From: Deltaproteobacteria bacterium
GTDB taxonomy: Bacteria; Desulfobacterota; BSN033; UBA1163
Assembly: GCA_037440525.1 (NCBI GenBank)
Contig: JBBITW010000009.1
Location: 1-38,059 of the forward strand
Length of the DNA: 38,059 bases
Direction: 5' to 3'
The notes beneath the pieces were generated by a model. It made no database searches. It saw nothing but the letters and a program-made list of their open reading frames with translations, and had not been told where the DNA came from. The translations under genes and the position numbers were made by a program. The stretch's first letter is position 1. Every line of letters starts with the position of its first letter. This document shows positions 7,089 through 32,814 of the stretch, in pieces.

Positions 7089-7260
7089 CCTAAATTGAGC
7101 GATTCCAAATTGTCATTCCGAGCGGAGCGAGGAATCTATAAGATTGCAACGCCTTCTGCTCGCAACGACTTCGTCGGATTGCCAAACACCCTTGGGGTGC
7201 TCGCAATGACTGATCCGCCTTTGGCGGAAAGGCTTTTAGTAAAAAATCGCTCAATTTAGG
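7089..7260. mobile_element. Family A MITE-like element, copy A2 (172 bp), carrying GTCATT palindromic modules
   Basis: Perfect 16-bp TIRs CCTAAATTGAGCGATT / AATCGCTCAATTTAGG; internal TGTCATTCCGAGCGGAGCGAGGAATCT, two GATTGC...CTCGCAAYGAC modules, TCCGCCTTTGGCGGA. Confidence 0.85.
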
Positions 7261-7337
7261 TAAAAATATCATCGAGCCGAGCTTTCCATTTTTAAATCAA
7301 TTCATAATTGGAGTTTTTATATAATGGGGGTGTTAAT

Positions 7338-8420
7338 ATGATGACAAGAAAGGAATTCCTTGAGCAAGTGATGAAGATGGCTAATCTGAAGGATTTAAAA
7401 CAGGCTGATGACGCAGCCCGTGCTGTAATTTCACTTACTAAGTTGATCATTGGACCTAAATTATCGCAAAAGATTGCAGATATCTCACCACCAGATCTTC
7501 GTGAAGGGTGGGAATCTATTAAACCTGCATTTCCAAAAAAAACAATTAAAATTATTACAGGACCTGGAGGTGAAGATGCTGATATACGTGAGATTGTTTT
7601 TCATCTCCAGAAATATCTTGGGGTGGATGTCATAGTCGAAAACATAGTAGGCTTCCGGGGAAAGACCCCTTTCGAAAAGTTCCAGCTGACTGAGCCTGAT
7701 GGATATACTTTGATTAGCTACACCTTTCCAAGGAGCATCATTATCGAGAATATGGGCGAGAGCAAATTTAAAACTAAAGATTTCACTCCGATCTATGCCT
7801 GGTCTTCCGGGAATCAATTCCTGGTTGTTTCTTCTGAAACCTATAATACCTTTGATGAGTTTTTGAAGGAGGCTCAGACAAGGACTCTTACAGGATCAAT
7901 CCCAATAAGAGGTGGGATTATTCATCTTGTTGGGCTTCTATTAGCTGATGGGCTAAAGATCAATGTAAACTGGATTCCTTATGAAGGTTCTGCTCCAAGT
8001 ATTTCGGCCCTGGTGCGCAGAGAGGTTGATTTTACGATCTGTGTTGCTTCGGCCCTTCCGTCATGGATTAAGGCAGGGAGAATAAGGGTGCTTGCTATGA
8101 TTCCTGATAGGTCTGGAAGTCGTAGCCCTTATTTTCCGGATATTCCCACCATGAAAGAATTGGGATATGATGTAGATTTTATTACGATTAGACATGTTAT
8201 TGAAGCTCCACCCGATACGCCACCTCATATTATAAAAATTTTGGAAGAAGCCTTTAAAAAAGCGATTAAAGAGCCTGCCTATGTCAAATGGGCTAAGAAA
8301 AATTATGTAATCATTGATCCATTAACCCCTCAAGAATTTTCTAAGGAGATAGCCGAGGCATATTCAAAAATAGAAAGATTTAAAGAAATGTTCAGGGAAG
8401 AGAGGACCCCAATGGAATAG
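7338..8420 (+). CDS. Tripartite tricarboxylate transporter substrate-binding-like (Bug/TctC) protein with N-terminal DUF2267-like domain
   Basis: FPKKTIKII..GPGG, EPDGYTL, WIPYEGSAPSISALV, FPDIPTMKELGY, APPDTPPHII are Bug/TctC hallmarks; start set to ATG 7338 after a GGGGGTG RBS; the first ~60 aa are charged and helical, not a signal peptide. Confidence 0.75.
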   Translation: MMTRKEFLEQVMKMANLKDLKQADDAARAVISLTKLIIGPKLSQKIADISPPDLREGWESIKPAFPKKTIKIITGPGGEDADIREIVFHLQKYLGVDVIVENIVGFRGKTPFEKFQLTEPDGYTLISYTFPRSIIIENMGESKFKTKDFTPIYAWSSGNQFLVVSSETYNTFDEFLKEAQTRTLTGSIPIRGGIIHLVGLLLADGLKINVNWIPYEGSAPSISALVRREVDFTICVASALPSWIKAGRIRVLAMIPDRSGSRSPYFPDIPTMKELGYDVDFITIRHVIEAPPDTPPHIIKILEEAFKKAIKEPAYVKWAKKNYVIIDPLTPQEFSKEIAEAYSKIERFKEMFREERTPME

Positions 8421-8472
8421 GTATTTATTTGGTACCTTGTCAATATCCCTAAGCGGCAATAAAAATGATTTA

Positions 8473-9582
8473 TTATCGTTCTCTCTTGCCTGCGATGAAT
8501 TCCTCCACCATCAATTTAGCTTCGTTATCAGGAAACTGGATAAATGGATGTTTCATCGCATAGGCCGAGATAGAGATAAGGGGGCCTCCTATTCCTCTTT
8601 CGCGGGCAATCTTACAACATCGGATTGAATCGATCGTAATTCCACCACTATTTGGAGAGTCTTCTACCGATAGCCTCAATTCGAGATTTAGCGGGACTTC
8701 TCCAAAACCACGACCTTCCATACGTAAGAAACAGACCTTATTGTCTTTTTGCCAGGGGACATAATCCGATGGACCGATATGTATGTTTTCAGGTTCCAGA
8801 GGGATTTCAAGCTGGGACTGAATGGCCTCAGTTTTGGAAATCCGTTTATTCTTCAGACGGTTTCGATTTAGCATATTCAGAAAATCTGTATTTCCACCTG
8901 TGTTGATTTGATAGGTGCGATCAAGTTTGACTCCACGATCTTCAAACAGTTTTACAAGGGTTCTATGAATAATGGTTGCACCCATCTGCGACTTTACATC
9001 ATCTCCAATAGCAGGAATTCCTTTTTCTTCAAATCTCTTTGCCCAATTTGGATCAGAGACAATGAAACTTGGCATACAATTTATTAAACTTACTCCAGTT
9101 GCAAGACATGCCTCTGCATAGAATTGAGTTGCAAGATCAGAGCCAACAGGAAGATAGTTCAGGAGGATTTCAACACCCGATTCCCTGAGGACTTTCTCTA
9201 CATTGCAAGGTTTTTCTTTTGCGACAATGAAGGTCCTATCCTCAGGAAAATCCCTCATATGTTCGGAGACCCCATCGAGTACTTCACCCATAGAAACTAT
9301 CACCCCTGAATTATTGAAATTCCTAAAAAATGTGGTGGTACAATTGGGTTTAGCAAAGATAGCCTCCCTCAGTGGTCTACCAACCTTTCTTTTATCGATA
9401 TCGAAGGCGGCTCCAACCTCTATATCCCAGGGTTTGTAACCTCCTATATCAAGGTGCATCAGACCGAGAGGTTCAAATTTTGGATTCTTCTGACTTAGGT
9501 CTCTGTAGAATTCAATCCCCTGGATAAGAGCACTTGCACAATTCCCAACACCAACAATACCGATTCGGATCGAATTCTTCAT
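8473..9582 (-). CDS. ino1: myo-inositol-1-phosphate (inositol-3-phosphate) synthase
   Basis: IVGVGNCASALIQG, NYLPVGS, GDDVKSQMGAT, YQINTGGNTDFLNM, VEDSPNSGG motifs. Confidence 0.95.
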   Translation of the reverse strand: MKNSIRIGIVGVGNCASALIQGIEFYRDLSQKNPKFEPLGLMHLDIGGYKPWDIEVGAAFDIDKRKVGRPLREAIFAKPNCTTTFFRNFNNSGVIVSMGEVLDGVSEHMRDFPEDRTFIVAKEKPCNVEKVLRESGVEILLNYLPVGSDLATQFYAEACLATGVSLINCMPSFIVSDPNWAKRFEEKGIPAIGDDVKSQMGATIIHRTLVKLFEDRGVKLDRTYQINTGGNTDFLNMLNRNRLKNKRISKTEAIQSQLEIPLEPENIHIGPSDYVPWQKDNKVCFLRMEGRGFGEVPLNLELRLSVEDSPNSGGITIDSIRCCKIARERGIGGPLISISAYAMKHPFIQFPDNEAKLMVEEFIAGKRER

Positions 9583-9632
9583 AAGATTTCAACCTTTCCA
9601 ATAAATTGAAAAATGGTTTTATAATCAGAAAA

Positions 9633-9661
9633 AAACTATCTTATTTCAATTCAATTGTCAA
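9633..9661 (-). promoter_or_regulatory. Putative sigma70 promoter of ino1 (TTGACA-17bp-TAGTTT)
   Basis: Perfect -35 at 9661-9656, 17-bp spacer, partial -10 at 9638-9633. Confidence 0.45.
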
Positions 9662-9672
9662 GAATTTTTGTA

Positions 9673-9895
9673 GAGACTCCTGAAAAAGTCCTAAAATGAC
9701 TGGGGAGGTAGGGTTCCAAACCCTTCGAATGCGGACACTAAGAAGTTAAATTGCTTACAATCGCTTAAAAGAAAATCAAGCATTTTCAGGGTATTAATCA
9801 TTATTGCTAAACTATTAGAGGTATCCGCTCGAAGGCTTTTCCACCCCACCTCCCCAGTCTATAAGAATAGTTTTTGATACTTTTTAAGAGATCTC
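9673..9895. mobile_element. Family B MITE, copy B1 (223 bp), with 5-bp TSD TTGTA
   Basis: Imperfect TIRs GAGACTCCTGAAAAAGT / ACTTTTTAAGAGATCTC; TTGTA at 9668-9672 and 9896-9900; inner IR GACTGGGGAGGTAGGG / CCCCACCTCCCCAGTC; homologous to 11740-11858. Confidence 0.85.
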
Positions 9896-9911
9896 TTGTA
9901 GACTTTCATTT

Positions 9912-10025
9912 AAAAATTAAAAGTGGACTCCTAATATATCCTCCTCTCCTTTGTCTTCTCCCCAGGGGGAGATGAGATAAGAAGTAGTGCAATTTTAAAA
10001 CTTAAACTGTCCACATTTAAATTTT
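9912..10025. repeat. Degenerate family C-like palindrome (CTCCTCTCC...TCTCCCC-A-GGGGGAGA) enclosed by an AT-rich inverted repeat
   Basis: AAAATTAAAAGTGGAC (to 9928) pairs imperfectly with GTCCACATTTAAATTTT (10009-10025); central hairpin at about 9940-9985. Confidence 0.45.
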
Positions 10026-10171
10026 AGCTAATGGATTTTTTATAGAGACTTCATAAGAGATAAATCTTGAAGAGAATAAAATTAAGATAAAAAATATTCC
10101 TTCAGATGATTTGACTCCAATTTTTATTTCTGATAAAAATATTTTATATAATTATAAAGGAAATAAAACAG

Positions 10172-10501
10172 ATGCTTAAAAAGAGGGAATTAAAAAAGGA
10201 AAAACTTGAGGAAATTATACGGAGGATTATTCAAGTTGCTCAACCTGAGAAAATTATTCTCTTTGGATCTGCGGCAAAAGGGACAATGGGTCCTCATAGT
10301 GATGTGGATTTATTAGTTATAAAAAAGGGAGAATTTCATCAGGGTCGTCTTACAGGCGATATTTATATGAACCTCCATGGAATAGGTATAGCTGTGGATG
10401 TTATTTTAGTAACTCCTGAGCAGGTTGAGAGATATCGGAATAACCACTACCTCGTTATTGCCCCTGCTCTTCGTGATGGAAAAGAGGTTTATCGTGCCTG
10501 A
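10172..10501 (+). CDS. Minimal nucleotidyltransferase (MNT) antitoxin of an MNT-HEPN module
   Basis: IILFGSAAKG...SDVDLLVI (GS-X10-DXD) motif, 109 aa, overlapping a downstream HEPN remnant. Confidence 0.88.
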   Translation: MLKKRELKKEKLEEIIRRIIQVAQPEKIILFGSAAKGTMGPHSDVDLLVIKKGEFHQGRLTGDIYMNLHGIGIAVDVILVTPEQVERYRNNHYLVIAPALRDGKEVYRA

Positions 10502-10668
10502 AAGGTATCCTCCAGAAGACCCAAGAGCAAGGAGAAAAATTAACACGATTTGCAGTTTTCACCAGATATCCAGGGATTGCTTCTCCTGTGAATTACGATG
10601 AATATGAAGAGGCATTAAATTTGGCAGAGGAAATTGTCCGATGGGCAAAAAAACAAATCGAAAGTTAA
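10494..10668 (+). pseudogene. HEPN-domain toxin with internal deletion and frameshift
   Basis: GTG start gives MPERYPPEDPR (HEPN-like N-terminus); from 10528, in another frame, QGEKLTRFAVFTRYPGIASPVNYDEYEEALNLAEEIVRWAKKQIES* (HEPN C-terminus with RYP); the central part is missing. Confidence 0.8.
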
Positions 10669-10726
10669 AATAGGAATTCAAATCTTAAAAGTTGAATTTA
10701 ATTTTGATTAAGTATAAGGAGGGGAA

Positions 10727-11620
10727 ATGAAAAGAAAGCTTATAATCATTATAGTAATATTAGTTCTCATAATAGGAGGCGCCTATCTCTTTTACTCCTT
10801 TTATATTGAAAGTCCAAGCAGGCAGGTTCTTGCACATGTGAATGACGAAAGGATTACAGTTGAAGAATTCAACCGTGAGCTCGCTAAATTGGAAAGCCCT
10901 TTACGAGAAATGTACAGAGAGGATCCCCTCCAATTTCTTGAAGGGATGATAATTAAAAAACTGCTTTTGCAGGAGGCAAAGAAAGAGGTTCCGGAGAAAC
11001 CGAAAACATATAAAGATATTACAAAGGCTTCTCCTGAAGAAGACCTCATCTCAAACTTGATGAAAAAGAGATTTTCAACCCCACCGACTGTGACAAAGGA
11101 AGAGATAAAAGAATTTTATTCCTTTTTTAAGGAGCAGATGGGTGGGAAATCTTTAGATCAGGTCTCATCCGAGATTGAGGAGATTTTAAGACAGGAGAAA
11201 CTGAAAGAGGAGACAAGAAAATTCATCCTTGGTCTAAGAACAGCTGCCAAAGTTCAGATAGATCAGATTCGTCTGCAAAAGATTTCATCCAAACCCCCGG
11301 AATCAAATACAGAGGAAGATTTTAAAAATGCCCTTAAAAGCGGGAAACCATTTTTAGTCGACTTTGGTGCAAATAATTGCTTGCCCTGCCGTCAGATGAG
11401 GCCTCTTTTAAAAGAGATCGATAAAGAATATGTGGGGAAGGTAAAGGTGTTAGTCATCGATGTTTATAGATATCAAAATCTTGCTCGAGAATTTAAAATA
11501 CAACTCATTCCTACCCTGATCTTCTTCGACAAACAGGGGAAAGAGATTTTTAGACACATAGGGTTCATGGATAAGGAGAAGATCGTAGCGAAGTTAAAAG
11601 AGATCGGGATGGAAACATAA
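10727..11620 (+). CDS. Membrane-anchored SurA/PrsA N-terminal-like domain fused to thioredoxin
   Basis: N-terminal TM anchor, VLAHVNDERITVEEFNREL (SurA_N-like), C-terminal LVDFGANNCLPC...IPTLIFFD thioredoxin fold; AAGGAGG RBS. Confidence 0.8.
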   Translation: MKRKLIIIIVILVLIIGGAYLFYSFYIESPSRQVLAHVNDERITVEEFNRELAKLESPLREMYREDPLQFLEGMIIKKLLLQEAKKEVPEKPKTYKDITKASPEEDLISNLMKKRFSTPPTVTKEEIKEFYSFFKEQMGGKSLDQVSSEIEEILRQEKLKEETRKFILGLRTAAKVQIDQIRLQKISSKPPESNTEEDFKNALKSGKPFLVDFGANNCLPCRQMRPLLKEIDKEYVGKVKVLVIDVYRYQNLAREFKIQLIPTLIFFDKQGKEIFRHIGFMDKEKIVAKLKEIGMET

Positions 11621-11739
11621 TTTCATAATAAAATAACTATTATCCTTGCCTACCATGATGGGGTTTATCAGACCACTATTGGTAGCCCGGTGGTATTCCC
11701 AATATCTTCTCCAAGAGTTCTATGTTAGGTTTAAATATC

Positions 11740-11858
11740 GAGGGCTCTGAAAAATTCTTGAAATGACTGGGGAGGTAGGGCTTCAAACCCTTCGAATGCC
11801 TTTCCATCCCACCTCCCCAGTCTTATAAGATCGTTTTAAATACTTTTTTAGGGACATC
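11740..11858. mobile_element. Family B MITE, copy B2 (119 bp), with 5-bp TSD ATATC
   Basis: Colinear with B1 apart from the 104-bp central segment; ATATC at 11735-11739 and 11859-11863. Confidence 0.85.
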
Positions 11859-11883
11859 ATATCTAATCTCGTATGATAAATTT

Positions 11884-13032
11884 ATGGATAATGGAGAGGA
11901 ACCAAAACTTTTTCAACGCGATTTCATTCTAACCTTTTTTTCACATTTTACTTTTGCATCAGTTTTTCATATCTTAATTCCAACACTTCCCATCTATCTC
12001 AAGAGATTGGGTTCTACAGAAATAGAAATTGGTCTTCTTATAGGAATCTTTGCAATTTCTTCATTGGGACTTAGACCTCTTGTTGGTAAAGCCCTTTTAA
12101 AAACAATGGAAAAAAGGTTTATGATTGGTGGTTCTGTTCTTTATGCCCTTACATCCATCGCCTATCTTTTTACACCTCCATTTTGGCCATTTTTTATAGT
12201 GAGAGTCTTTCAAGGTATTGCATTTGCCTTTTTTCACACTGCCTCACTGACATTAATTGCCAATATAAGTTCAGAGTCCCATAGAGGCCAGAGTTTGGGT
12301 TACTTTTCTATATCCATGACCATTTCTGGTGCATTGTCTCCTTCAATAGGGTTCATTATAAATAACTTCAGTTTCGCCACCCTTTTTCTGGTCTGCTTTG
12401 GGCTTTCAGTATGTTCTATGGTGATTTCTCTTCAATTAAAAGGGAAAAGGCCTTCTCCTTCAGAGGATCATTCAATTAGGAGGATTTTCTTTCTCAGCCG
12501 AGAAGCTCTTCCCCCATCCATCATCAATTCCTTTTCACTTTTTATCTGGGGGGCCTTAACAGCCTTTTTCCCTCTTTATGCAATCAATCATGGGGTATCC
12601 AATCCAGGCCTTTTCTTTACCACCATTGCACTGATGCTTATACTTGGCCGTGTGTTTGGTGGGAGGATAATGGATCTTTATGATAGGGAGAAGGTCATTC
12701 TGCCTTGCCTAATCTGTTATATAGTTTCAATGTCAATACTTTCTTTTTCAAAAACACTACCAATGTTTATCCTTGTGGCTGTGATTTTCGGGATGGGACA
12801 GGCCTTTTTAATGCCTGTTTTAGTGGCCTATGCCCTAACTCGCGATGGCACCTCTGCAGGGCCAGTTATGGGGACATTTACTGCCGTCTCGGATCTTGGG
12901 CTATTTTTGGGATCAGTAATCATGGGGATAGTTATTCAGACAACAGGTTACTCTACGATGTTTCTGTGTTTAGCTATATTGGGTTTCATTAATCTCAATT
13001 ATTTCTATTTTTTTGTAAGAAAAAGGAAATAA
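11884..13032 (+). CDS. Major facilitator superfamily transporter
   Basis: About 12 hydrophobic segments; RVFQG, HRGQSLG, GRIMDLYDR MFS loop motifs. Confidence 0.9.
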   Translation: MDNGEEPKLFQRDFILTFFSHFTFASVFHILIPTLPIYLKRLGSTEIEIGLLIGIFAISSLGLRPLVGKALLKTMEKRFMIGGSVLYALTSIAYLFTPPFWPFFIVRVFQGIAFAFFHTASLTLIANISSESHRGQSLGYFSISMTISGALSPSIGFIINNFSFATLFLVCFGLSVCSMVISLQLKGKRPSPSEDHSIRRIFFLSREALPPSIINSFSLFIWGALTAFFPLYAINHGVSNPGLFFTTIALMLILGRVFGGRIMDLYDREKVILPCLICYIVSMSILSFSKTLPMFILVAVIFGMGQAFLMPVLVAYALTRDGTSAGPVMGTFTAVSDLGLFLGSVIMGIVIQTTGYSTMFLCLAILGFINLNYFYFFVRKRK

Positions 13033-13144
13033 TATAGGTTTCGATTCATGTAATGTTTTCATAAGGCCCTTACTTTAAGCGAATCCTGGTAAAATAAAAG
13101 TTAATCCTTGATTTAATCAACAATTTTCTTTTAATATTTATCTG

Positions 13145-14878
13145 ATGGAAGGATTTTTTAATAGACTACTTCGTATAAATCTCTCAAAGAAAAAATCTAT
13201 GGTGGAAGAAATTCCCGAACACGTCCTCCAATCCTATTTAGGTGGAAAGGGTTTGGGTTCATACCTTCTTCTAAAAGAGAATCCACCTCATATTGATCCA
13301 CTTTCACCTGATAATCGTCTGATATTCACCCTGGGGCCGCTTGCAGACACCTTATTTCATGGTTCAAGTCGTTATGCCATATTTACCAAGTCACCCCAGA
13401 CAGGAATCTATTCTGAATCTTATTCAGGAGGGAAGATCACACTCCCTCTCAGCAGGACTGGTTATGACGCCATTATTATTGAAGGGAGATCCAGTAATCC
13501 CATATTTATTGAAATAAGTGATAGAGATGTTATTTTTCACTCTGCCCCTGATATCTGGGGAAAGGATACTTACGAGGCAGAAGATGAGATTCTTAAAAAG
13601 GTTGATATTCAGGGGGCAGGGGCTATGGTCATAGGGCCTGCTGGTGAAAACCTTGTTAAGTTTGCAGTAATAGAAAGCGAACACTGGCGTTCCCTCGGAA
13701 GGGCAGGAATTGGTTCTGTAATGGGCTCAAAGAAACTCAAAGGGATTGTCTTCCATGGCAGAACCCGAAGAAGACTTGCAGATCCTTCTTCTTTAAGGAG
13801 ACTTGCCAAAGAATTTAAAGAGCGTGTCAAGGATAATCAGATCGTTAAGGTTTATAGAAAATATGGAACTCCAATGCTTGTATCCATAATGAATACCATA
13901 GGTGCCTTTCCAACTCAATATTGGTCCAAAGGGACATTAGAAGGATGGGAAGAAATAAGCGCAGAGAGCCTTATGGAACACTGTGATGTTACTCCATCGG
14001 CATGCCCCCATTGCTTTATGGCCTGCGGGAAAATCTCACAGGTAAAACAGGGTCGACACAAGGGTCTTCGAATTATGGGGCCAGAGTACGAAACAATTTA
14101 TGCCTTCGGGGGGCTGTGTATGGTTAAATCGATTGAGGAGATAATATACCTTAACGATCTTTGTGACCGACTCGGCATGGATACCATTACAGCAGGAAAC
14201 CTGGTGGCCTTTGCTATTGAGGCATCGAAAAAAGGGAAGATTAGGGAGAAACTCGACTACGGGGATGTAGATGGTATTTCGGAGATTTTGAAAATGATTG
14301 CCTACCAGAAGGGGATAGGAGAAATATTGTCAAAAGGAATTAAGTACGCCTCCTCATTCTGGGGAATGGAGAAAGAGGCTGTTCATGTAAAAGGGCTTGA
14401 GCCAGCAGGTTTTGATCCGAGGGTCTTAAAGGGGATGGGACTTGCCTATGCCACTTCAGATCGAGGGGCATGCCATCTAAGGGCGACCTTTTATAAATCT
14501 GAGCTTTCAGGCCAGATCGACCCTGATCAGATAAGAGGAAAGGCTAAACTCTTTGTGGATTATGAAGATAAGATGACAATTTTTGATGCCCTGATCCTAT
14601 GTCGTTTTTACAGGGATCTAATCACCTGGAATGACCTTGAAGAGATTATAAAATTTGCCTGTGGGTTATCACTGAAAAAGAGGGATCTAAAGGCTATGGC
14701 TTCAAGGATTATAAATTTAGCCCGATCCTTTAATCGTCAGGAAGGGGTGACAAGAAGGGATGATAGGCTTCCGAGGAGATTCTATAATGAAATGCTAAAG
14801 GAAACTGGAAAGGCAATGGATCAGAAGGAACTGGAATTTATGATAAATGAATATTATAGGCTGAGGGGATGGAATTGA
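13145..14878 (+). CDS. aor: Aldehyde:ferredoxin oxidoreductase family (tungstopterin) protein
   Basis: YLGGKGLG, TKSPQTG, MGSKKLK, CPHCFMAC, GPEYET, CDRLGMDTI, RGACHLR motifs. Confidence 0.92.
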   Translation: MEGFFNRLLRINLSKKKSMVEEIPEHVLQSYLGGKGLGSYLLLKENPPHIDPLSPDNRLIFTLGPLADTLFHGSSRYAIFTKSPQTGIYSESYSGGKITLPLSRTGYDAIIIEGRSSNPIFIEISDRDVIFHSAPDIWGKDTYEAEDEILKKVDIQGAGAMVIGPAGENLVKFAVIESEHWRSLGRAGIGSVMGSKKLKGIVFHGRTRRRLADPSSLRRLAKEFKERVKDNQIVKVYRKYGTPMLVSIMNTIGAFPTQYWSKGTLEGWEEISAESLMEHCDVTPSACPHCFMACGKISQVKQGRHKGLRIMGPEYETIYAFGGLCMVKSIEEIIYLNDLCDRLGMDTITAGNLVAFAIEASKKGKIREKLDYGDVDGISEILKMIAYQKGIGEILSKGIKYASSFWGMEKEAVHVKGLEPAGFDPRVLKGMGLAYATSDRGACHLRATFYKSELSGQIDPDQIRGKAKLFVDYEDKMTIFDALILCRFYRDLITWNDLEEIIKFACGLSLKKRDLKAMASRIINLARSFNRQEGVTRRDDRLPRRFYNEMLKETGKAMDQKELEFMINEYYRLRGWN

Positions 14879-23027: not shown

Positions 23028-23263
23028 TCTAAATTGAGCGATTCTAATCCGCCTGGGGTGGATCAGCCTTGGGCTGAATTGTCATTGCCAGATAAAGTCC
23101 CTACCTTTGATAGGCAGGGAAGCAATCTCAACCAGATTGTCATTCCGAGCGGAGCGAGGAATCTATAAGATTTCCATGTCCCCCACATCAAGTGCGGGGT
23201 GCTCGCAATTACTGATCCGCCTTAGGCGGAAAGGCTTTTGGTAAAAAAATCGTTCAATTTAAG
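23028..23263. mobile_element. Family A MITE-like element, copy A3 (236 bp), with several nested mini-hairpins
   Basis: TIRs TCTAAATTGAGCGATT / AATCGTTCAATTTAAG; flanks TAATA/CAATA; shares the GTCATTCCGAGCGGAGCGAGGAATCT module and the right end with A2 and A4. Confidence 0.85.
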
Positions 23264-24201: not shown

Positions 24202-25866
24202 ACTTCCTCTAATAATTCTTTCCAACGAATTCAAAATGAAGTAGTCGAGTATTCTCTTTGATGTCTTTTCTCTAATAAATGAGAAACCCTTATTTGAATC
24301 TCTTCTGAGACTGAAGAAGGCTTTCTCATTTAGAACCATTAATAGAAGTTTCATCCACGGGCTATCTTTTGTATGGATGCCCGAATTAGTATCTATCCTT
24401 ACTTTCTCCTTAAGAAACTGAATCAGTCCTTTAAGAGTAATTCCTTCCTCTATATCTCCACTATCTATTCTCCCTTTAATAAAATTTATGAGCCTTGATA
24501 AACGAAGAATTGTAATAAGATCGAGGCGAGTAAAATCTGATGTCTCTATTGGAAATGCAGTTGAGCGCCACTGGCTTGGAAAAGGGGGAAGGATGGCCTC
24601 CCTTTTACATCTCTCAAATAGAGGTGTTCCAGGAGCAGGGTAATAGATACTCGGTCCGAGAAGAACCCTTTTCCCCATCAGGTAGATTAATGTATCTACC
24701 ATCTCTTCAATTGTTTGACCTGGTATGCCTAATATGGCATATGCAATCACATTAAGACCTTCCTCTTCTGCATCGTCGAGGATATTGCCAAAATCTTCAT
24801 AAGGTCCTGGTCTTTTAAGCCTTTGTTTTGTTGATTCATAAACACTTACCAGGGAGAGATTTAATGTGCGAAATCCTGCCCTTTTCATCAAACTCATAAG
24901 TTCTTTATCCAGTGAGGCAAAAGATACTCCATTCATCGCAAATAGTTCAATTCTGTTTTCACCAAATGTTTTGATGATGAGGTTTAATATCTCCCTTGCC
25001 CTCTTTCTGTCGAATGTAAAATTGTCATCCTCGATATCAAAAGCCTTTATATCATAAAGACTATGACATTCAATCATCTCTCTTATTATATTTTCAGGAG
25101 AACGTGCTCTGAAGTAGGAACCCATGGTGAGATGGGTTGAACAGTATTCACATCCATGTGGACAACCCCTGCTTGTAATGATCATTGTGGATCGCTTCCC
25201 ATTTATTTTATATCTATCGAGATCGAGGAGGTCTATTGATGGATAAGGAATTGAATTTAAATCCTTGATAAAGCTCTCGAGTGGATTTATTCTTATATCT
25301 CCACTATTCCGGTATCCAACTCCATCCATCCCTTCAATCTCTTTCACTTTACCATTTTCAATCCTTTCTATAAGAAGGGGCAGTCGAAACTCTCCCTCCC
25401 CCATGATTACATAATCGACAGATGGATTCTTTAAAACCCCTTCAGGATCAGAGCTTACATGTGATCCTCCCATAATAACTATCTTTCCCTTATTCCACTG
25501 TTTAATGATTTTAGCTACCTTAAGAGCCTCCTGATGATATGGTGTAAAGTTTGAGGATATACCAAAAATATCCGCCTGTGAGGCCTCAATCATTTTTCTT
25601 ATCTCTTCCCATCCCATTCCAAAGTGATAATATCCACTGTAGAGTTTGAAAGGGCTAAGGTCATTATATGGATAGAAATCTTTTAGATAAGATAATTCAT
25701 AAGGAATGGGGGTATTCCTTTTCCTTCCTGCCTGACAATCAAGAATCTCTACATCATGTCCGGCAGTCTTTAATGATGAGGCAATATAGGCAAGCCCGAT
25801 TGGTTGTCGCCGTATTGGGGTCTGATAAAAATCCTCAACAGGTGGCTGTATCAGAAGGATTTTCAT
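24196..25866 (-). CDS. B12-binding domain radical SAM protein
   Basis: PIGLAYIAS, IMGGSH, VIMGEGE, TSRGCPHGCEYC (CxxxCxxC), DDNF, PAPGTPLF. Confidence 0.92.
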   Translation of the reverse strand: MKILLIQPPVEDFYQTPIRRQPIGLAYIASSLKTAGHDVEILDCQAGRKRNTPIPYELSYLKDFYPYNDLSPFKLYSGYYHFGMGWEEIRKMIEASQADIFGISSNFTPYHQEALKVAKIIKQWNKGKIVIMGGSHVSSDPEGVLKNPSVDYVIMGEGEFRLPLLIERIENGKVKEIEGMDGVGYRNSGDIRINPLESFIKDLNSIPYPSIDLLDLDRYKINGKRSTMIITSRGCPHGCEYCSTHLTMGSYFRARSPENIIREMIECHSLYDIKAFDIEDDNFTFDRKRAREILNLIIKTFGENRIELFAMNGVSFASLDKELMSLMKRAGFRTLNLSLVSVYESTKQRLKRPGPYEDFGNILDDAEEEGLNVIAYAILGIPGQTIEEMVDTLIYLMGKRVLLGPSIYYPAPGTPLFERCKREAILPPFPSQWRSTAFPIETSDFTRLDLITILRLSRLINFIKGRIDSGDIEEGITLKGLIQFLKEKVRIDTNSGIHTKDSPWMKLLLMVLNEKAFFSLRRDSNKGFSFIREKTSKRILDYFILNSLERIIRGSK

Positions 25867-25890
25867 GATATTGTAAAATGAAAAATTTAT

Positions 25891-26116
25891 TCTAAATCAA
25901 GCGATCCAAGATTGTCATTCCGAGCTGAGCAATCTCTTCCAAATTGTCATTCCTAACTTACAAAATTGTCATTCCGATCGAAGCGAGGAATCTATGAGAT
26001 TGCCACGTCGCTTCGCTCCTCGCAACGACTTCGTCGGATTGCCACGCCCTTCGGGCTCGCAATGACTGATCCGCCTTTGGCGGAAAGGATTTTAGTAAAA
26101 AATTGCACAATTTAAA
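25891..26116. mobile_element. Family A MITE-like element, copy A4 (226 bp), with degenerate TIRs and three ATTGTCATTCC starts
   Basis: TCTAAATCAAGCGATC / AATTGCACAATTTAAA ends; the 3' ~130 bp closely match A2. Confidence 0.8.
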
Positions 26117-26216
26117 TATAAATGAATTGATAAGATTTTTAAAGGGATTTAAATGGAGAAAGGTCTTAAAGAATCAGATTATTTATTACTCGGAGCAATT
26201 AAATCTTTACAATTAT

Positions 26217-26290
26217 CCCCCTCACCTCGGTTGCGAGTCGTACCGACTTCCCCTCTCCCCAATAAGTGTGGAGAGGGTTAGGGTGAGGGG
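26217..26290. repeat. Family C palindrome CCCCTCACC...CCCTCTCCCC / GGAGAGGG...GGGTGAGGGG with a 20-bp hairpin insert
   Basis: The arms match at 20 of 23 positions once 26227-26246 is removed; the arm plus insert recurs, reverse-complemented, at 32762-32806. Confidence 0.8.
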
Positions 26291-26495
26291 TTCAGACCGG
26301 CAGAAGTCATTTATTTTATGTTCTCATTAATAATTCATTCACTTTTGCAGAAAAAAGTTTGTCATTGCGGGATTTTAATGATCCTTTAATAAAGAAGAAT
26401 CATTATCACAAAAAAGGGGATTTTGAAAAACTCAATTGGTTTAGGTTATATTAAACTGGCTTTAGACTCTCAATTTCAAATCGAGGAGGAAAGGG

Positions 26496-27551
26496 ATGAT
26501 TCGTTTTAAAAAGATTGAGGAAAATGCCACACTTCTAAATCCACTTAAGGATTTTGAGCCTGAAAGTCAACTAATTGAGTATCGTGAGGATCCCCTGAGT
26601 GGTCTTACCTCATTTGTAAGGACAGGAAGGGCATTCTGGGCAAGAATCCAGAAGACTGACAGGGCATGGTTAGAAAGGTTTGTTGAAGAGACGAGGGAGA
26701 GATGTTTCTTCTGCCCGGATAAACTCGAAGCATCGACTCCAAGATTTCCGAAAGATTTTATCCCCGAGGGAAGGCTTACCCGTGGAGAGGCCACCATATT
26801 TCCAAACCTTTTTGCCCATAAAAAGTATTCTGCTATTATTGCAATGACGAAGAATCACTACCTGAACCTCAATGAGTTTACCCCGGATGTCTTTTTTAAT
26901 GCATTTAAATTAGCAGATTTCTATATTCGGCGTGCTCATGAATTAAGCGGGGTAGAACACGCTGAGATAGGAGTCAATTACCTTTATCCTGGTGGTGCCA
27001 GTATTGCTCATCCCCATCTTCAGGCCATTGCCTCTCACGCACCACACTATTTGATAAAGGTTTATATGGAAAAAGGAAGGGCCTATTATAAAAAATATTC
27101 TAAGAATTATTGGGAGGAATTGATTGTTAAGGAGAAAGAACTCGGTGAGAGGTATATTGGAAGAACAGGTTCTATACACTGGTTTACTCCATTTGCACCA
27201 ATAAGAGAGGATGAGGTGGATGGGGTTGTTGAGGGGAAGTCAAATTTCCTTGAGTTTGATGACGGCGACTGGGAAGGTCTTTCTCAGGGAGTAACGAGGG
27301 TTTTGAAGGCATATCACGATAAAGGTTTCTCTTCTTTCAACTTTGCAATTTATTCGGGACCTCTGGGTAAAAGAATTAAGTACCTCTGGGCAGGGATAAG
27401 GATTGTTTCACGCTCAAGTGTTCAGACATATCCAGTGAATGATACCTGGTATTCAAACTGTATCCTTCTCGATGGTTTTGTCGCTGAACCACCAGAGGAG
27501 ATTGCAAACTGGATACGCCCGTATTTTCAGACCCAGAAAGATTTACGGTAA
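26496..27551 (+). CDS. Galactose-1-phosphate uridylyltransferase-like (GalT/HIT) protein
   Basis: EYREDPLSG, CFFCP, FPNLF, GASIAHPHLQ (HxHxQ active site). Confidence 0.8.
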   Translation: MIRFKKIEENATLLNPLKDFEPESQLIEYREDPLSGLTSFVRTGRAFWARIQKTDRAWLERFVEETRERCFFCPDKLEASTPRFPKDFIPEGRLTRGEATIFPNLFAHKKYSAIIAMTKNHYLNLNEFTPDVFFNAFKLADFYIRRAHELSGVEHAEIGVNYLYPGGASIAHPHLQAIASHAPHYLIKVYMEKGRAYYKKYSKNYWEELIVKEKELGERYIGRTGSIHWFTPFAPIREDEVDGVVEGKSNFLEFDDGDWEGLSQGVTRVLKAYHDKGFSSFNFAIYSGPLGKRIKYLWAGIRIVSRSSVQTYPVNDTWYSNCILLDGFVAEPPEEIANWIRPYFQTQKDLR

Positions 27552-27691
27552 TGAAGCTAAAGCAGAAATTCGGTGATCTGGCAAGGGATGACAGATCTTT
27601 TAACTTTTTCACTTTTGGATCAAGATGGGTTGACCAGTTAAACTTATTGTGATAAATCTGTAAATATAGAGATTGAGGAGGAGGAAATAGA

Positions 27692-29020
27692 ATGTCCATG
27701 ACAAAAAATGATGTACTCCAGATGGCAAAGGAGAAGGATGTAAAATTTGTAAGACTCTGGTTCACAGATATCCTTGGCTTTCTTAAAAGTTTTGCCATTA
27801 CCGTAAGAGAGCTTGAAGGGGCACTTGAAGAGGGGATGGGTTTTGATGGTTCTTCAATCCTTGGTTTCGTCAGGATTGACGAGAGTGATATGGTTGCTAT
27901 GCCTGATCCCTCAACCTTCAGGATTATTCCCTGGATGGCAAACGAACATGTTGTAGCTACCATGTTCTGTGATATCCTTGAGCCTGATGGAAGACCTCAC
28001 CAGGGAGATCCGCGCTGGGTATTAAAGAAGAATTTAAAAAGGGCTTCTGATATGGGATATACATTCTATGTGGGCCCTGAACTTGAATACTTCTATTTTC
28101 AGAAATCCAAAGGAAAACCTGAACCACTTGACTCAGGTGGATACTTTGATTTAACACCTCTCGATGTAGCAAGTGATCTGAGGAAACAGACTGCTGTGAT
28201 ATTAGAGGAGATGGGAATTCCAGTGGAATATTCACATCATGAGGTAGCCCCCAGTCAGCATGAGATTGATCTCAAATACAGGGATGCCTTGACAATGGCA
28301 GATAGTACAATGATTTATCGTCTTGTCGTTAAAGAGGTTGCACTGAAGAACGGAGTTTACGCAACCTTTATGCCAAAACCCATTTTTGGTGTAAACGGAA
28401 GTGGAATGCATACCCATCAATCACTTTTTAAAGGGGATAAGAATGCATTCTTTGATCCTCAGGATAAATATCATCTTTCAAAGATTGCTAAACACTATAT
28501 TGCAGGCCTGATGAAACACGCAAGGGAGATTACACTGATAACGAACCAATGGGTGAATTCATATAAAAGGCTTGTCCCAGGATATGAGGCACCGGTCTAT
28601 ATCTCCTGGGCCCAAAGAAACCGCTCTGACCTCATTAGGATCCCAGTTTATAAACCTGGAAAGGAGCTTGCTACAAGGGTCGAATACCGTTCTCCTGACC
28701 CTGCCTGTAATCCTTACTTAGCATTTTCGGTGATGCTTGCAGCAGGCCTTGAGGGGATCGAGAAGGAATATCCTCTGAAGGATCCTGTAGAGCGCAATGT
28801 CTATGAGATGAGTGAAGAGGAAAGGAGGAGATACAATATCGAATCTCTACCTGAGGATCTCTATGAGGCAATAAAAATAACTGAGAAGAGCGAACTTGTG
28901 AGGAATGCACTCGGGGATCATGTCTTTAACAGATTTATTGAAAATAAAAAGGTTGAATGGGAACGTTATCGTGCACAGGTAACAGATTATGAATTGGAGC
29001 AATACTTTTCAATTTTATAA
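27692..29020 (+). CDS. glnA: Glutamine synthetase type I
   Basis: FDGSSI, GPELEYF, HHEVAPSQHE, ATFMPKP..NGSGMH, NSYKRLVPGYEAP, EYRSPDP. Confidence 0.95.
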   Translation: MSMTKNDVLQMAKEKDVKFVRLWFTDILGFLKSFAITVRELEGALEEGMGFDGSSILGFVRIDESDMVAMPDPSTFRIIPWMANEHVVATMFCDILEPDGRPHQGDPRWVLKKNLKRASDMGYTFYVGPELEYFYFQKSKGKPEPLDSGGYFDLTPLDVASDLRKQTAVILEEMGIPVEYSHHEVAPSQHEIDLKYRDALTMADSTMIYRLVVKEVALKNGVYATFMPKPIFGVNGSGMHTHQSLFKGDKNAFFDPQDKYHLSKIAKHYIAGLMKHAREITLITNQWVNSYKRLVPGYEAPVYISWAQRNRSDLIRIPVYKPGKELATRVEYRSPDPACNPYLAFSVMLAAGLEGIEKEYPLKDPVERNVYEMSEEERRRYNIESLPEDLYEAIKITEKSELVRNALGDHVFNRFIENKKVEWERYRAQVTDYELEQYFSIL

Positions 29021-29031
29021 TGGAGGGGTAA

Positions 29032-29673
29032 ATGGATCAAATTAGGGAGTGGTGGGTAGAAGAAAGGGCAAAGAGTGTAATCCAAAGGCTTAAGGAACAT
29101 GATTTTGAGGCAATCTATTTAAAGACCAGGCAGGATGCTTCTGAAGAAATCCTGAAACATGTCTCATCAAACATGAAGATTGGGGTTGGAGGATCAGTTA
29201 CAATAAGGGAATTGGGGATATTAGAAAGATTGAAAGAGAAAGGTAATATCATTCTCGATCACTGGGTGCCAGGGCTAAAAAGAGATGAATCGATTGAACT
29301 TAGAAGATCACAAATGACATCAGATCTATTTTTAAGTAGTGCCAATGCTGTTACCCTCAAAGGTGAGATTGTAAACATCGATGGCATAGGGAATCGGATC
29401 AACTCAATAAGTTTCGGACCAAAAAAGGTCATACTCGTAGCAGGCTATAATAAAATCGTGGGGAATTTGGATGAAGCCATCCAGAGGATAAAGAATGTTG
29501 CTGCTCCACTCAATGCAAGACGTCTAAATATTGATGTGCCATGTGCAAAGACAGGGAGATGTGTGGATTGTAACTCCCCGAACCGAATCTGTAGGGTCAT
29601 GGTAATTCTTGAGAGGAGGCCATCATTAACAGATATGTTGATCATTTTGGTTGGTGAAGAATTGGGGTTTTGA
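29032..29673 (+). CDS. LUD-domain (lactate utilization protein C-like) protein
   Basis: VGGSVT, SSANAVTLKGEIVNIDGIGNR, GYNKIV, PCAKTGRCVDCNSPNRIC. Confidence 0.8.
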   Translation: MDQIREWWVEERAKSVIQRLKEHDFEAIYLKTRQDASEEILKHVSSNMKIGVGGSVTIRELGILERLKEKGNIILDHWVPGLKRDESIELRRSQMTSDLFLSSANAVTLKGEIVNIDGIGNRINSISFGPKKVILVAGYNKIVGNLDEAIQRIKNVAAPLNARRLNIDVPCAKTGRCVDCNSPNRICRVMVILERRPSLTDMLIILVGEELGF

Positions 29674-29715
29674 GAGAGGCAGGGTTATACATTACGAACT
29701 ATAGGGGGCAAAGAT

Positions 29716-31278
29716 ATGGGTAAGATCAGGAGGGCAATCATAAGCGTATCGGATAAATCAGGTATAGTAATGTTTGCAAAGGGTTTGGTCCAGTTGGGTG
29801 TAGAGATCCTCTCCACAGGCGGGACTGCAAAGACATTGAGAGATAATGATATCCCAGTGAAGGAGATCTCAGAATATACTGGATTTCCTGAGATGCTGGA
29901 TGGCAGGGTAAAGACACTTCATCCAAAGATCCATGGGGGTCTTTTGGGGCAGAGATCCAGAGCCGAGCATATGGCGAAGATGAAGGAGTATGGCATCACT
30001 CCTATTGATCTCGTGGTGGTAAATCTCTACCCATTTGAGGCAACCGTTGCAAAGGATGATTGTACCCTTGAGGAGGCTATTGAAAATATAGATATTGGTG
30101 GGCCTACAATGCTGAGGTCGGCTGCAAAGAACTATCCTGATGTTACAGTGATTGTGGATCCCGAAGACTATGAATCTGTGCTCTCTGAATTGAAAGAAAA
30201 GGGTGAAGTATCAATTGAAACAAATTTTCGATTGGCAAAAAAGGTTTTTCAGCATACAGCCCGCTACGATGGCGCCATATCCAACTATCTCGGTCTAATA
30301 AAAAATGGTAAAAAGGTCACTTCATTTCCAGAAACCTTTACATTTCAGGTGAAGAAGGTTCAGGAGCTACGTTATGGTGAAAACCCTCATCAGAAGGCTG
30401 CTTTTTATTGTGAGTATTTTTTTAAGGAGCCTTCTGTTTCAAATTCCATCCAGCTCCATGGTAAGGAGCTTTCATTCAATAATATTCTCGATCTCGATTC
30501 AGCATTTGAAACAGTAAAGGAATTTGAAGAGCCAGCAGCAGTGATTATTAAACATAATAACCCGTGTGGTGTGGCCATCTCTTCAAGTAGTCTGGCAGAG
30601 GCCTTCAGGAAGGCCAAAGACTGCGACCCTGTATCTGCCTTCGGTGGAGTTGTGGGTTTCAATAGAGAAATAGACGAAGATACTGCAAAGGAGATGTTTG
30701 AAATCTTTCTTGAGGTTATTATTGCTCCAGGTTTTAGGCCTGAAGCCTTAGAGGTTCTTAAGAAGAAGAAGGATCTGAGGATTCTTCAATCACCCCCTCT
30801 AAAGAGCCTTTTTCAAAGAGGGGGATTTGATTTAAGAAAGGTTGTGGGGGGACTGTTGGTTCAGGATAGAGATCTCGGCAATGTTTCGATAGATCAATGG
30901 AGGGTTGTAACAAAGAGAAGTCCTACAGAGGAGGAGAAGAGGGCAATGGCCTTTGGCTGGAAGGTTGCAAAACATGTCAAATCAAATGCTATTGTCCTCT
31001 GCAGGGAAGACAGGACAATAGGTATTGGGGCGGGTCAGATGAGCAGGGTGGATTCCACAAGGCTGGCTGTGATGAAGGCCCAATCTTCAACAAAAGGATG
31101 CGCACTGGCCTCGGACGCAATGTTTCCGTTTAGGGATGGAGTGGATACTGGAGCTGAAGCCGGTGCAACGGCAATTATTCAACCAGGAGGCTCTATTAGA
31201 GATGATGAGGTGATTGCAGCCGCGGATGAACATAATATTGCTATGGTCTTTACAGGTATAAGGCACTTCAGACATTGA
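29716..31278 (+). CDS. purH: Bifunctional AICAR formyltransferase/IMP cyclohydrolase
   Basis: [57 protein letters not shown]. Confidence 0.97.
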
Positions 31279-31284
31279 TTTTTT

Positions 31285-31352
31285 AATCGTGAATGGGGAA
31301 TCGTGATTCATAGATTAATAAATGATAGAAGAGCCCGAGTCACGAATCACGA
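31285..31352. repeat. Short heptamer-like repeats in inverted arrangement (AATCGTG-AATGGGG-AATCGTG ... GAGTCAC-GAATCAC)
   Basis: Perfect 9-bp IR TCGTGATTC (31301-31309) / GAATCACGA (31344-31352) with 7-bp periodicity on both sides. Confidence 0.45.
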
Positions 31353-31359
31353 GGTTTAT

Positions 31360-32631
31360 ATGAAGATTCTGGTAGTTGGTGGTGGAGGAAGGGAGCATGC
31401 CCTGGTCTGGAAGATAAGCCAGAGCAGGAGGGTTTCGAAAATCTATTGTGCCCCTGGAAATGCAGGTATTTCCAAACAGGCAGAGATTGTTTCAATTAAG
31501 GCGAATGATTTAGATGGTCTTCTAAAATTTGCCTTAAGAGAAGAGATTGATTTAACGGTTATTGGCCCAGAAGAACCATTGACAAAGGGTATAGTTGATA
31601 TTTTTGAATCGAATGGACTTCCTATTTTCGGACCGAGTAAGAAGGCAGCACAGATTGAGGGAAGCAAAGTCTTTGCAAAGGAGATGATGATGAAATATCA
31701 TATTCCAACGGCTTCCTTCGAAATATTCAACAATAGCAGAGAGGCGATTGATTACATTCGAAAAAAAGGAGCGCCGATTGTTGTAAAGGCAGATGGTCTC
31801 GCAGGTGGGAAAGGGGCTATCGTCTGTAAAACCATTGAAGAGGCTATTAAAGCAGTTGAGAGAATAATGGTGGAGAAGATTTTTGGAGAGGCAGGAAATA
31901 GAATTGTCGTGGAGGAATATCTTGTTGGAGAGGAAGCCTCCTATATCGCATTTACAGATGGAAAATCAATACTTCCTTTGGCCTCATCACAGGACCATAA
32001 AGCGGTCTTCGATGGAGATGAAGGCCCAAACACAGGTGGGATGGGAGCTTACTCTCCGGCACCTGTTGTCACGGATGAAATGCATGAGAAGATTATTGGG
32101 AAAATATTGAGACCCATAATCTATGGTATGAATGAGGAAGGCAGTTCTTATAAAGGCGTCATTTATGCTGGTTTGATGATCTATGAAGGTGAACCTAAGG
32201 TATTGGAGTTTAATGCCCGATTTGGAGACCCCGAAACACAACCTGTACTTATGAGGATGAAGGGGGATATAGTTCCAATCCTTGAGGCCTGTATCAAAGG
32301 AGAACTATCAAGGTGCAAGATAGAATGGGATAAAAAGGCATCTGTTTGTGTGGTTATGACCTCTAAGGGATACCCCGGGGATTATGAAAAGGGAAAGGTT
32401 ATAAAGGGACTTGATGAGGTTTCATCCATGGAGGATATCTTTGTATTTCATGCTGGCACAGCATTAAAGAATGGTATGATGGTTACAAATGGAGGGAGGG
32501 TCTTAGGGGTTACAGGGCTGGGAGAAGATATCCAAAGGGCAATTGAGCGAACCTACAATGCTGTCAGGAAGATCTCATGGGAAGGGGTCCACTATAGAAC
32601 CGATATTGGTTATAAGGCATTGTGTAGATAA
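31360..32631 (+). CDS. purD: Phosphoribosylamine--glycine ligase
   Basis: MKILVVGGGGREHAL (start reset to 31360), APGNAG, KADGLAGGKG, GPNTGGMGAY, RFGDPETQ, FHAGT. Confidence 0.97.
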   Translation: MKILVVGGGGREHALVWKISQSRRVSKIYCAPGNAGISKQAEIVSIKANDLDGLLKFALREEIDLTVIGPEEPLTKGIVDIFESNGLPIFGPSKKAAQIEGSKVFAKEMMMKYHIPTASFEIFNNSREAIDYIRKKGAPIVVKADGLAGGKGAIVCKTIEEAIKAVERIMVEKIFGEAGNRIVVEEYLVGEEASYIAFTDGKSILPLASSQDHKAVFDGDEGPNTGGMGAYSPAPVVTDEMHEKIIGKILRPIIYGMNEEGSSYKGVIYAGLMIYEGEPKVLEFNARFGDPETQPVLMRMKGDIVPILEACIKGELSRCKIEWDKKASVCVVMTSKGYPGDYEKGKVIKGLDEVSSMEDIFVFHAGTALKNGMMVTNGGRVLGVTGLGEDIQRAIERTYNAVRKISWEGVHYRTDIGYKALCR

Positions 32632-32647
32632 ATTGAGTTAATCTATA

Positions 32648-32814
32648 TCTAAATTGAGCGATTTTAGATTGTCATTGCGAAGCAATCTCTTCCAAATTGT
32701 CATTCCTCGCTCCGCTCGGAATGACAAACATGGCATACACCTCATCCGACACAGCCTCTTCGGGGAGAGGGTTGGGTCGGTACGACTCGCAACTGAAGTG
32801 AGGGGGAATTTAGG
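32648..32814. mobile_element. Family A MITE-like element, copy A5 (167 bp), composite cargo; right TIR reduced to AATTTAGG
   Basis: Full left TIR TCTAAATTGAGCGATT, GTCATT modules, solo CGACACAGCCTC end, family C arm; TA on both flanks. Confidence 0.7.

Follow-up and report, generated by a model that had tools for sequence, protein, structure and literature searches.

The window analysed here is the whole 38,059-nucleotide stretch of contig C9 from a 3.55-Mb assembly (318 contigs, 40% GC, 90% complete) of a Deltaproteobacteria bacterium. It contains copies of a transposable element of the miniature inverted-repeat kind (MITE), designated family A, and very small hairpins nested inside them (Table 1). 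The hairpin unit, TCCGCC-NNN-GGCGGA, normally occurs as a 30-nt inverted pair without a spacer, with the consensus TCCGCC-RRA-GGCGGA followed directly by TCCGCC-TYY-GGCGGA. The pair at 23048-23077, in MITE copy A3, folds into two 6-bp hairpins (-8.0 kcal/mol, z -3.1). No Rfam family was matched within the window, and a scan of metagenomes with a 40-nt flank of copy A3 gave no match.

An initial annotation of this DNA had listed GC-rich hairpins that begin with TC and end with GA, and all of its hairpin sequences and coordinates are present as written. It had proposed a very small hairpin unit that inserts precisely into other repeats without target duplication, which holds for the TCCGCC pair, although the inserted unit is the 30-nt inverted pair and not the 15-nt hairpin it had named. 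Its first comparison of an empty with a filled site is correct: copy A2 reads GATTCCAA/ATTGTCATT (7100-7117) where copy A3 reads GATTCTAA/30 nt/ATTGTCATT (23040-23086). This left-end site is also empty in the copies read from G003, a genome of another genus in the same family as the source genome. The host element itself is a true MITE with a 5-bp target duplication. Among 65 complete family-A copies, 120-250 bp long with 15-nt inverted ends, an exact 5-nt flanking direct repeat (TWWWA) occurs in 32, where permutation gave 2.3 on average and never more than 10, and the flanks match at 4 or more of 5 nt in 47. Two insertion signatures are nested here, a pair without duplication inside a MITE with a 5-bp duplication.

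The pair occupies two sites in family A. At the right end, 116 candidate ends were compared. A single hairpin is present in 43, directly after GACTGA in 29 of these, and a hairpin pair in 15, of which 12 follow ATAAATA. Another 15 are free of hairpins, approximately 11 being true family-A ends that read GACTGATAAATA/AAGGC, and the other 43 comprise pairs or singles in degenerate form together with ends that belong to other families, the counts of 43 singles and 15 pairs thus being minima. Since the single form lacks TAAATA, it is not one insertion away from the empty form. The series is best explained by the shortest path, in which the 30-nt pair is inserted into the empty end and 21 nt are then deleted between two GA; by the look of them, the hairpins that stand alone at 7214, 23216 and 26070 arose from the pair in this way. 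The genome has 41 exact copies of TCCGCCTTTGGCGGA, and 39 of them share one fixed context, which is this right end of the large repeat. None of the 20 family-A copies fetched from G003 has a TCCGCC hairpin, and in eight of them the empty right end reads ACTGATAAATA/AAGG or a close variant; TCCGCCNNNGGCGGA occurs once in the whole G003 genome versus 55 times here. At the second site, the left end, the pair is found in at least 6 of the 65 complete copies, and 11 hairpin matches adjoin the inverted end. A cruder census of left ends gave 97 empty versus at most 22 filled, where the 22 may include degenerate first units. Besides the two MITE sites, the hairpin occurs in about ten further distinct contexts in the genome, among them the centre of another repeat family (e.g. 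C115:8894 and C156:7945), a "ggattc" repeat (C5:13053, C55:14022 and C112:9333), single sites (e.g. C4:852, C12:25046 and C282:1130) and two protein-coding genes.

In the first of these genes, dnaN (C4:15295-16485), TCCACCAGAGGCGGATCTGTCTCTGGCGGA lies in frame and is read as TCC ACC AGA GGC GGA TCT GTC TCT GGC GGA, giving STRGGSVSGG. The product matches all three beta-clamp Pfam domains, its alignment with PDB 7rzm has a gap exactly at the 10-codon insert, and none of the 18 orthologues compared from other genomes has these codons. In the second, a metallophosphoesterase gene (C242:164-1063, minus strand), SATVGSAFGG is in frame, and its 10 columns align to a clean gap in all 12 orthologues and in the gene's own paralogue in this genome; no PDB relative was found for this protein. 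The initial annotation had stated that a 15-nt module preserves the reading frame, as it does, and had predicted peptide insertions of the SAFGG type, which were found in these two genes and at 40 of the listed sites elsewhere. In the dnaN of another genome (G009, L192), the same loop carries six extra residues from TCC GCA GGA TCC TTT GGA. By its sequence, this extra segment resembles a copy that has decayed or lost some of its length, a hint that this loop was hit twice. Relaxed hairpin matches also lie within genes of the window, at 1928, 21927 and 30634. The match at 30634 was rejected as an insertion, being the conserved native SAFGG of PurH (Table 1), and therefore loose matches alone prove nothing.

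A pattern of the 30-nt pair was scanned across genomes, using one genome per species, and matched at least 123 sites on at least 118 contigs, where approximately one match was estimated to be expected by chance. The counts that follow refer to the matches listed. The record titles name Patescibacteria groups, Omnitrophota, Kiritimatiellae, Planctomycetales, Gammaproteobacteria, Ignavibacteria, Chloroflexota and others; judged by these titles, the records come from many independent studies and assemblers. Only two matches in the collection are on viral contigs, thus there is no sign of phages as the main carriers. The stems are fixed and the loops vary, with 24 invariant nucleotides recurring across phyla despite degenerate codons. 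Loop 1 is purine-rich (AGA, AAA, GGA, GAA, CAA), loop 2 is its pyrimidine-rich mirror (TCT, TTT, TCC, TTC, TTG), and the two are exactly complementary at 22 of 123 sites; the element is therefore an inverted dimer of one 15-nt unit. The 5' flank is T-rich (55%, 81% and 57% T at -3, -2 and -1) and the 3' flank is A-rich in mirror image. A flanking direct repeat is absent at 107 of 120 sites, and a convincing target duplication is present at none of the 120. The flanks were also considered as a palindromic target and rejected, their complementarity being that of shuffled partners. No run of T was seen after the hairpin.

At 44 of these sites the reading frame stays open for 60 codons or more to either side, and 40 of the 44 are in the phase TCC GCC nnn GGC GGA, which is read as SAxGGSAxGG. 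The four exceptions read PPxADPPxA(D/E) or R(R/Q)RRIRLxRK, and in the other two phases the fixed bases are unable to form stop codons. As its length of 30 is divisible by three and its arms are palindromic, the pair encodes Ser-Ala-x-Gly-Gly twice in one phase, whichever strand is read. The cysteinyl-tRNA synthetase of another genome shows an exact 10-residue gap against PDB 3sp1 at the element, and two genes resembling aspartyl-tRNA synthetase (L065 and L095) carry it at different positions. In the set of 41 relatives, single hairpins number 55 here, 31, 20, 18, 14, 8, 6, 6 and 5 in eight genomes and 0-3 elsewhere, against 0-5 for a reversed-pattern control in those genomes. Some of the hairpin-rich genomes belong to a family where the MITE was not found, and the sequence around the hairpin differs between genomes. 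In one genome (G010; L049), TCCGCCAAAGGCGGA lies within the RNase P RNA gene at 1232-1684 (RF00010, 275 bits), in a variable stretch modelled as an insertion; this may be a copy of the element inside a gene for a structured RNA, or else a variable helix native to that RNA.

From these observations we consider it likely that the 30-nt pair was inserted as a unit. The pair enters A/T-rich sites without target duplication; in this genome it entered the family-A MITE at two sites and then spread passively as the MITE multiplied, and it also entered other repeat families, dnaN and the metallophosphoesterase gene. Short deletions between 2-3-nt repeats later removed hairpins, the common single hairpin at the MITE right end being a pair that has lost 21 nt. 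The predominance of the Ser-Ala-x-Gly-Gly phase may be due to selection, which would favour an insert that is flexible and harmless. As the element encodes nothing, a trans-acting mover would be needed, and a protein recognising the invariant stems might move it, possibly on single-stranded hairpin DNA in the manner of insertion sequences of the IS200/IS605 type or of repetitive extragenic palindromes (REPs) and their REP-associated tyrosine transposases (RAYTs). Such a trans-acting, single-strand mechanism, proposed by analogy, is possible but rather doubtful. We lean slightly towards the broader reading in which the pair is truly a mobile element and one of the smallest known, which occurs in many phyla, is moved by hairpin-specific machinery without target duplication, reads as a harmless Ser-Ala-x-Gly-Gly linker in either orientation, persists in essential genes such as dnaN and has been amplified here inside MITEs.

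Several points weigh against this account of the pair as a unit of insertion. No partner enzyme for the pair was found among DUF559 genes, Y1 transposase genes and genes between hairpins, and the statement in the initial annotation that no characterised enzyme is known for the hairpin unit stands. No DUF559 gene was found in this genome, which is 90% complete, and DUF559 occurs in 1 of 9 genomes with at least five hairpins versus 18 of 32 with fewer, so that a DUF559 gene bracketed by the repeat was rejected as a correlate. Y1 genes are near-universal (38 of 41 genomes) and therefore uninformative; the suggestion that hairpin abundance tracks DUF559 or Y1 transposase genes fails, as neither follows copy number. 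Among five Y1_Tnp matches in this genome, the intact one, in C274 (L012, G000; 903-1930), was read. It codes for a 315-aa protein resembling Y1 (HUH) transposases, extended at the C-terminus, and lies between the arms of a perfect inverted repeat of its own, GGGTCAGGTCTACACATTTGACAA, which is unrelated to the repeats studied. Its motifs NHYH and YIHLNP match subclass 2.1, which is listed without a REP in the relevant part of PMC6006769. No recurrent gene lies between neighbouring hairpins in 15 pairs, which enclose ordinary genes of differing sizes. All 118 listed records of the 30-mer are metagenome-assembled genomes. A single sequencing run, labelled as a subsurface metagenome, contains the window, and in it the organism's contigs have a depth of ~5x and are broken at repeats, so that they are uninformative on variants at hairpin sites; at this depth, and with no same-genus genome, no direct transposition event was seen. 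Hairpin copies counted within MITE families are not independent events, and the pair junctions here (ATA/AAG, TAA/ATT and TAT/GAG) fit the cross-phylum flank preference loosely. Finally, selection on the stem is supported by double changes at paired positions, where 23 copies fall in the 18 compensatory kinds versus 7 copies in the 36 non-compensatory kinds, but this count is dominated by two subfamilies (11 and 6 copies).

An alternative is that every difference in presence is a deletion, the hairpins being ancestral in the large repeats and lost by replication slippage across palindromes. The microhomology of 2-3 nt at most boundaries of optional modules speaks for it, as do the fetched G003 copies that retain units 1 and 3, which keep the inner loop hairpins and mark the short 144-bp form as derived, and the terminal single hairpin, for which loss of 21 nt from the pair is the best explanation. 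Here the initial annotation had named deletion as the scenario that would overturn its proposal; several hairpin-free variants of the large repeat are indeed deletion products, but the polarity of the TCCGCC pair is that of insertion. The outgroups are empty (all 18 dnaN orthologues, all 12 phosphoesterase orthologues and the paralogue, and 20 of 20 MITE copies from G003), and deletion leaves unexplained how one 30-mer comes to recur in genes, and in phyla, that are unrelated to each other. The orthologue gaps refute deletion as a full account, which we regard as improbable, while it still applies to the hairpins in the loops of the MITE units. It is unlikely, if less so, that the 30-mers are solo remnants of larger cassettes, for instance a small nuclease gene between inverted double hairpins, whose ends collapse after the cargo is lost so that the cassette is the moving unit. 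An inverted dimer is what fused ends should look like, but the DUF559 counts and the lack of any recurrent gene between the 15 neighbouring hairpin pairs run counter to this.

The hairpin could instead be a functional motif of the host, such as a protein-binding site, an RNA structure or part of a terminator, that is selected in place and merely hitch-hikes in the MITE. Of 174 relaxed matches, 100 are at one fixed position of one MITE, the stem changes are compensatory, and the copy in G010 sits in a variable inserted region of the RNase P RNA gene. Set against these are the clean 10-codon insertions in the genes for DnaN, the phosphoesterase and the cysteinyl-tRNA synthetase, the 24 nucleotides held invariant across phyla where codon degeneracy would let them change, and a hairpin that no T run follows, and we hold this explanation to be very improbable. 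An artefact of assembly or sequencing would fit the metagenomic origin of all the records and the low read depth here. It is hardly credible, however, given loops that vary while stems are fixed, a reading-phase bias of 40 in 44, the existence of decayed and compensated variants of the hairpin, and the many independent studies and assemblers that the record titles point to.

Literature searches found no published description of the 30-nt element. It lacks defining features of REP/RAYT systems and of MITEs, and shares the behaviour, but not the sequence, size or host range, of two other classes of small repeat. One of these comprises the small dispersed repeats (SDRs) of heterocyst-forming cyanobacteria, which Elhai et al. 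(2008, Genome Res 18:1484) reportedly described as 21-27 nt long and nested in other repeats. As in SDRs, very small palindromic repeats lie inside other repeats, are proposed to be mobile and have no known enzyme, and the 30-nt element also shows what is said to mark SDRs, repeats of ~20-30 nt nested precisely without duplication. It differs in being a 30-nt inverted pair of another sequence that occurs in many phyla and in frame in genes, whereas SDRs are described as found only in Nostocaceae in the portion of PMC5861425 that concerns them. The other class is that of the Rickettsia palindromic elements (RPEs), given in the pertinent text of PMC10969869 as ~150 bp long, restricted to Rickettsia, in frame in unrelated housekeeping genes and translated. 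Insertion in frame into unrelated genes, with predicted peptide read-through, is common to both. The element described here is 30 nt long, of other sequence and in other phyla, outside the ~100-150 bp and the Rickettsia host that characterise RPEs, and gives the same peptide on either strand.

REPs, their inverted doublets (REPINs) with RAYTs, and IS200/IS605 elements are outlined, in the sections of PMC6006769 and PMC3116915 that treat them, as short GC-rich hairpins in inverted doublets that are mobilised in trans without target duplication. The 30-nt element resembles these in its GC-rich hairpins, its inverted doublet and its insertion without target duplication. For REPs, PMC6006769 gives a conserved 5' guide tetranucleotide, GTAG or GTGG, next to the foot of the hairpin, and its search rules use a stem of 7-20 bp. 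The element has neither tetranucleotide, is flanked by T-rich sequence 5' and A-rich sequence 3', and has a stem of 6 bp. It is also not extragenic, with 44 of 123 listed sites in long open frames and two genes here, and the intact Y1 gene in C274, one of five matches, is flanked by another repeat and not by TCCGCC hairpins. As for MITEs, host family A is typical in its 15-nt inverted ends, 5-bp TWWWA duplication and length of 120-250 bp, whereas the 30-mer nested in it duplicates no target and is much smaller than MITEs usually are; no related autonomous element sharing the ends was found in the 90%-complete assembly of 318 contigs.

The other repeats of the window were compared with their copies elsewhere in the genome (Table 1). 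The 13-nt end motif of family A, TAAATTGAGCGAT, has 442 genome matches at up to two mismatches, of which ~80 are estimated to be due to chance, and 90 pairs face each other within 1 kb. The complete copies consist of the inverted ends, three REP-like units (ATTGTCATTGCG..GCAATC, ATTGTCATTCC..GGAATC and one inverted copy) and a terminal hairpin. No transposase bearing family-A ends was found in the assembly, and pairs of inverted ends 1.1-3.2 kb apart enclose ordinary genes. Copies vary by optional modules at fixed slots, located in the loops of units 1 and 3 (11, 13, 15, 17, 27 or 30 nt), at an extra unit (24-51 nt), at the left end (25-30 nt) and at the right end (21 nt). Most module boundaries show microhomology of 2-3 nt (CGA..CGA, CG..CG, GA..GA). 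Since the family-A copies fetched from G003 in which units 1 and 3 are retained keep the loop hairpins, with unit 3 doubled, the short 144-bp form that is frequent here is derived by deletion. On a Kiritimatiellae contig (L057; 4617-4680 and 6438-6500), the REP-like TTGTCATTCCGAGCGTAGCGAGGAATC, near-identical to unit 2 of family A, lies directly beside the 30-nt pair; as that genome is labelled as another phylum, the building blocks of family A may be common to several phyla. Another repeat of ~200 bp lies in the window at 9665-9870, with inverted ends gactggggaggtagggtt ... ccaccccacctccccagtc, and copies of it also adjoin family-A ends elsewhere in the genome. The bin that holds it (9616-10269) has by far the highest summed contig depth of the run, ~1237 versus ~5 for unique DNA.

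Table 1. Positions of repeats, hairpins and a control sequence in the window
Feature	Positions	Strand	Remarks
Family-B element	811-936	+	Inverted ends of family A, different body
MITE copy A2, family A	7089-7260	+	Inverted ends YCTAAATTGAGCGATT, REP-like units inside; no 5-bp duplication
Part of an extra REP-like unit (...CGCAACGACTTCGTCGGATTGCC...)	7166-7178	+	Extra unit of 24-51 nt, same slot in ~20 of 65 copies
Single TCCGCC-TTT-GGCGGA hairpin	7214-7228	.	Right end of copy A2; preceded by GACTGA
MITE copy A3, family A	23028-23263	+	30-nt pair at left end, 30-nt insert in loop of unit 1, 27-nt hairpin in loop of unit 3, single terminal hairpin
30-nt double hairpin, TCCGCCTGGGGTGGA + TCAGCCTTGGGCTGA	23048-23077	.	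Follows the left inverted end and precedes unit 1 of copy A3
Hairpin in loop of unit 1	23098-23120	.	CCTGCC...GGCAGG type; inserts of 29-30 nt in the same slot in C25, C26 and C31
Single hairpin, loop TTA	23216-23230	.	Right end of copy A3
MITE copy A4, family A	25893-26114	+	
Single hairpin	26070-26084	.	Right end of copy A4
Family-C palindrome	26218-26290	+	Left arm with 20-nt module at 26227-26246; fold -21.6 kcal/mol, z -4.9
Native Ser-Ala-Phe-Gly-Gly of PurH, TCTGCCTTCGGTGGA	30634-30648	+	Control; gapless alignment to PurH 3zzm (SAYGG)
Chimaera of family-A left half and family-C arm	32649-32830	+	20-nt module reversed at 32777-32796

The second empty-versus-filled comparison of the initial annotation concerned the family-C palindrome, in which removal of the 20-nt module was said to restore a 23-bp arm. 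The match between the arms is restored, with two mismatches to the partner arm, but the arms are 21 nt long. Genome-wide, 45 copies are filled with the module and 54 are empty, and one copy also occurs in another genus (L030); the module is an old presence/absence character. Its sequence, TCGGTTGCGAGTCGTACCGA, was rejected as an independently moving unit, as it is a fixed or optional module of another repeat with constant neighbours (CCCCTCACC/../CCYTTCCCTCTCC), and the copies compared show no sign of mobility of its own. In two other genomes (L137 and L138), the TCCGCC pair lies inside or at the centre of a CCCCTCACC.../...GGTGAGGGG palindrome, the kind that carries the 20-nt module here, and the arms and centres of such palindromes may be favoured landing sites.

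The listed hairpins do not form one family, since three of them were assigned to other repeats: besides TCGGTTGCGAGTCGTACCGA, the hairpin TCCCTACC...GGCAGGGA belongs to the CCTGCC...GGCAGG group of loop hairpins and not to the TCCGCC family, and CGACTTCGTCGGA is part of the extra repeat unit rather than a separate hairpin element. Exact copies in the genome, on both strands, number 41 for TCCGCCTTTGGCGGA, 19 for TCGGTTGCGAGTCGTACCGA (45 at up to two mismatches), 36 for CGACTTCGTCGGA, four for the near reverse complement of TCGGTTGCGAGTCGTACCGA and one for each of the remaining four listed sequences. Nor do TC...GA ends define a class. GC-rich perfect hairpins (stem of at least 6, loop of 3-5) number 901 (731 distinct) in the genome versus ~480 in three first-order Markov simulations, an over-representation of ~1.9-fold. 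Those that start with TC number 114 (64 distinct) versus 41 simulated, but other starts are similarly enriched (CC 159 vs 70, CT 70 vs 35, GC 66 vs 31, CG 33 vs 11, AA 38 vs 11), and the TC excess is that of the TCCGCC...GGCGGA family alone. As T pairs with A and C with G, the TC/GA ends are merely the two outer pairs of a stem. The length modulo 3 of all TC..GA hairpins, which had been suggested as a check, is distributed as 136/134/105 within long frames and 129/40/32 outside; the in-frame hairpins of this loose class resemble chance ones, and the 15-nt family dominates outside frames. A separate family, with GG/CC ends, is represented in the window by the GGCAAGGGCTTGTCCCTTGCC hairpin at 32866-32890, which together with its variants is among the commonest perfect hairpins of the genome (15, 11, 11 and 10 copies).

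This genome presents a nesting of element within element, in which two distinct insertion signatures adjoin, and a clear succession from the empty state through the pair to the single hairpin. If the 30-nt pair is truly mobile, the size limit of mobile DNA would fall to ~30 nt and the pair would be among the smallest insertion elements known. It would also point to a DNA-processing activity common to many uncultured lineages, and essential proteins would repeatedly gain small in-frame insertions from it. Such insertions would matter for annotation, for the evolution of linker loops and, in uncultured lineages such as Patescibacteria, for protein alignments and phylogenies.

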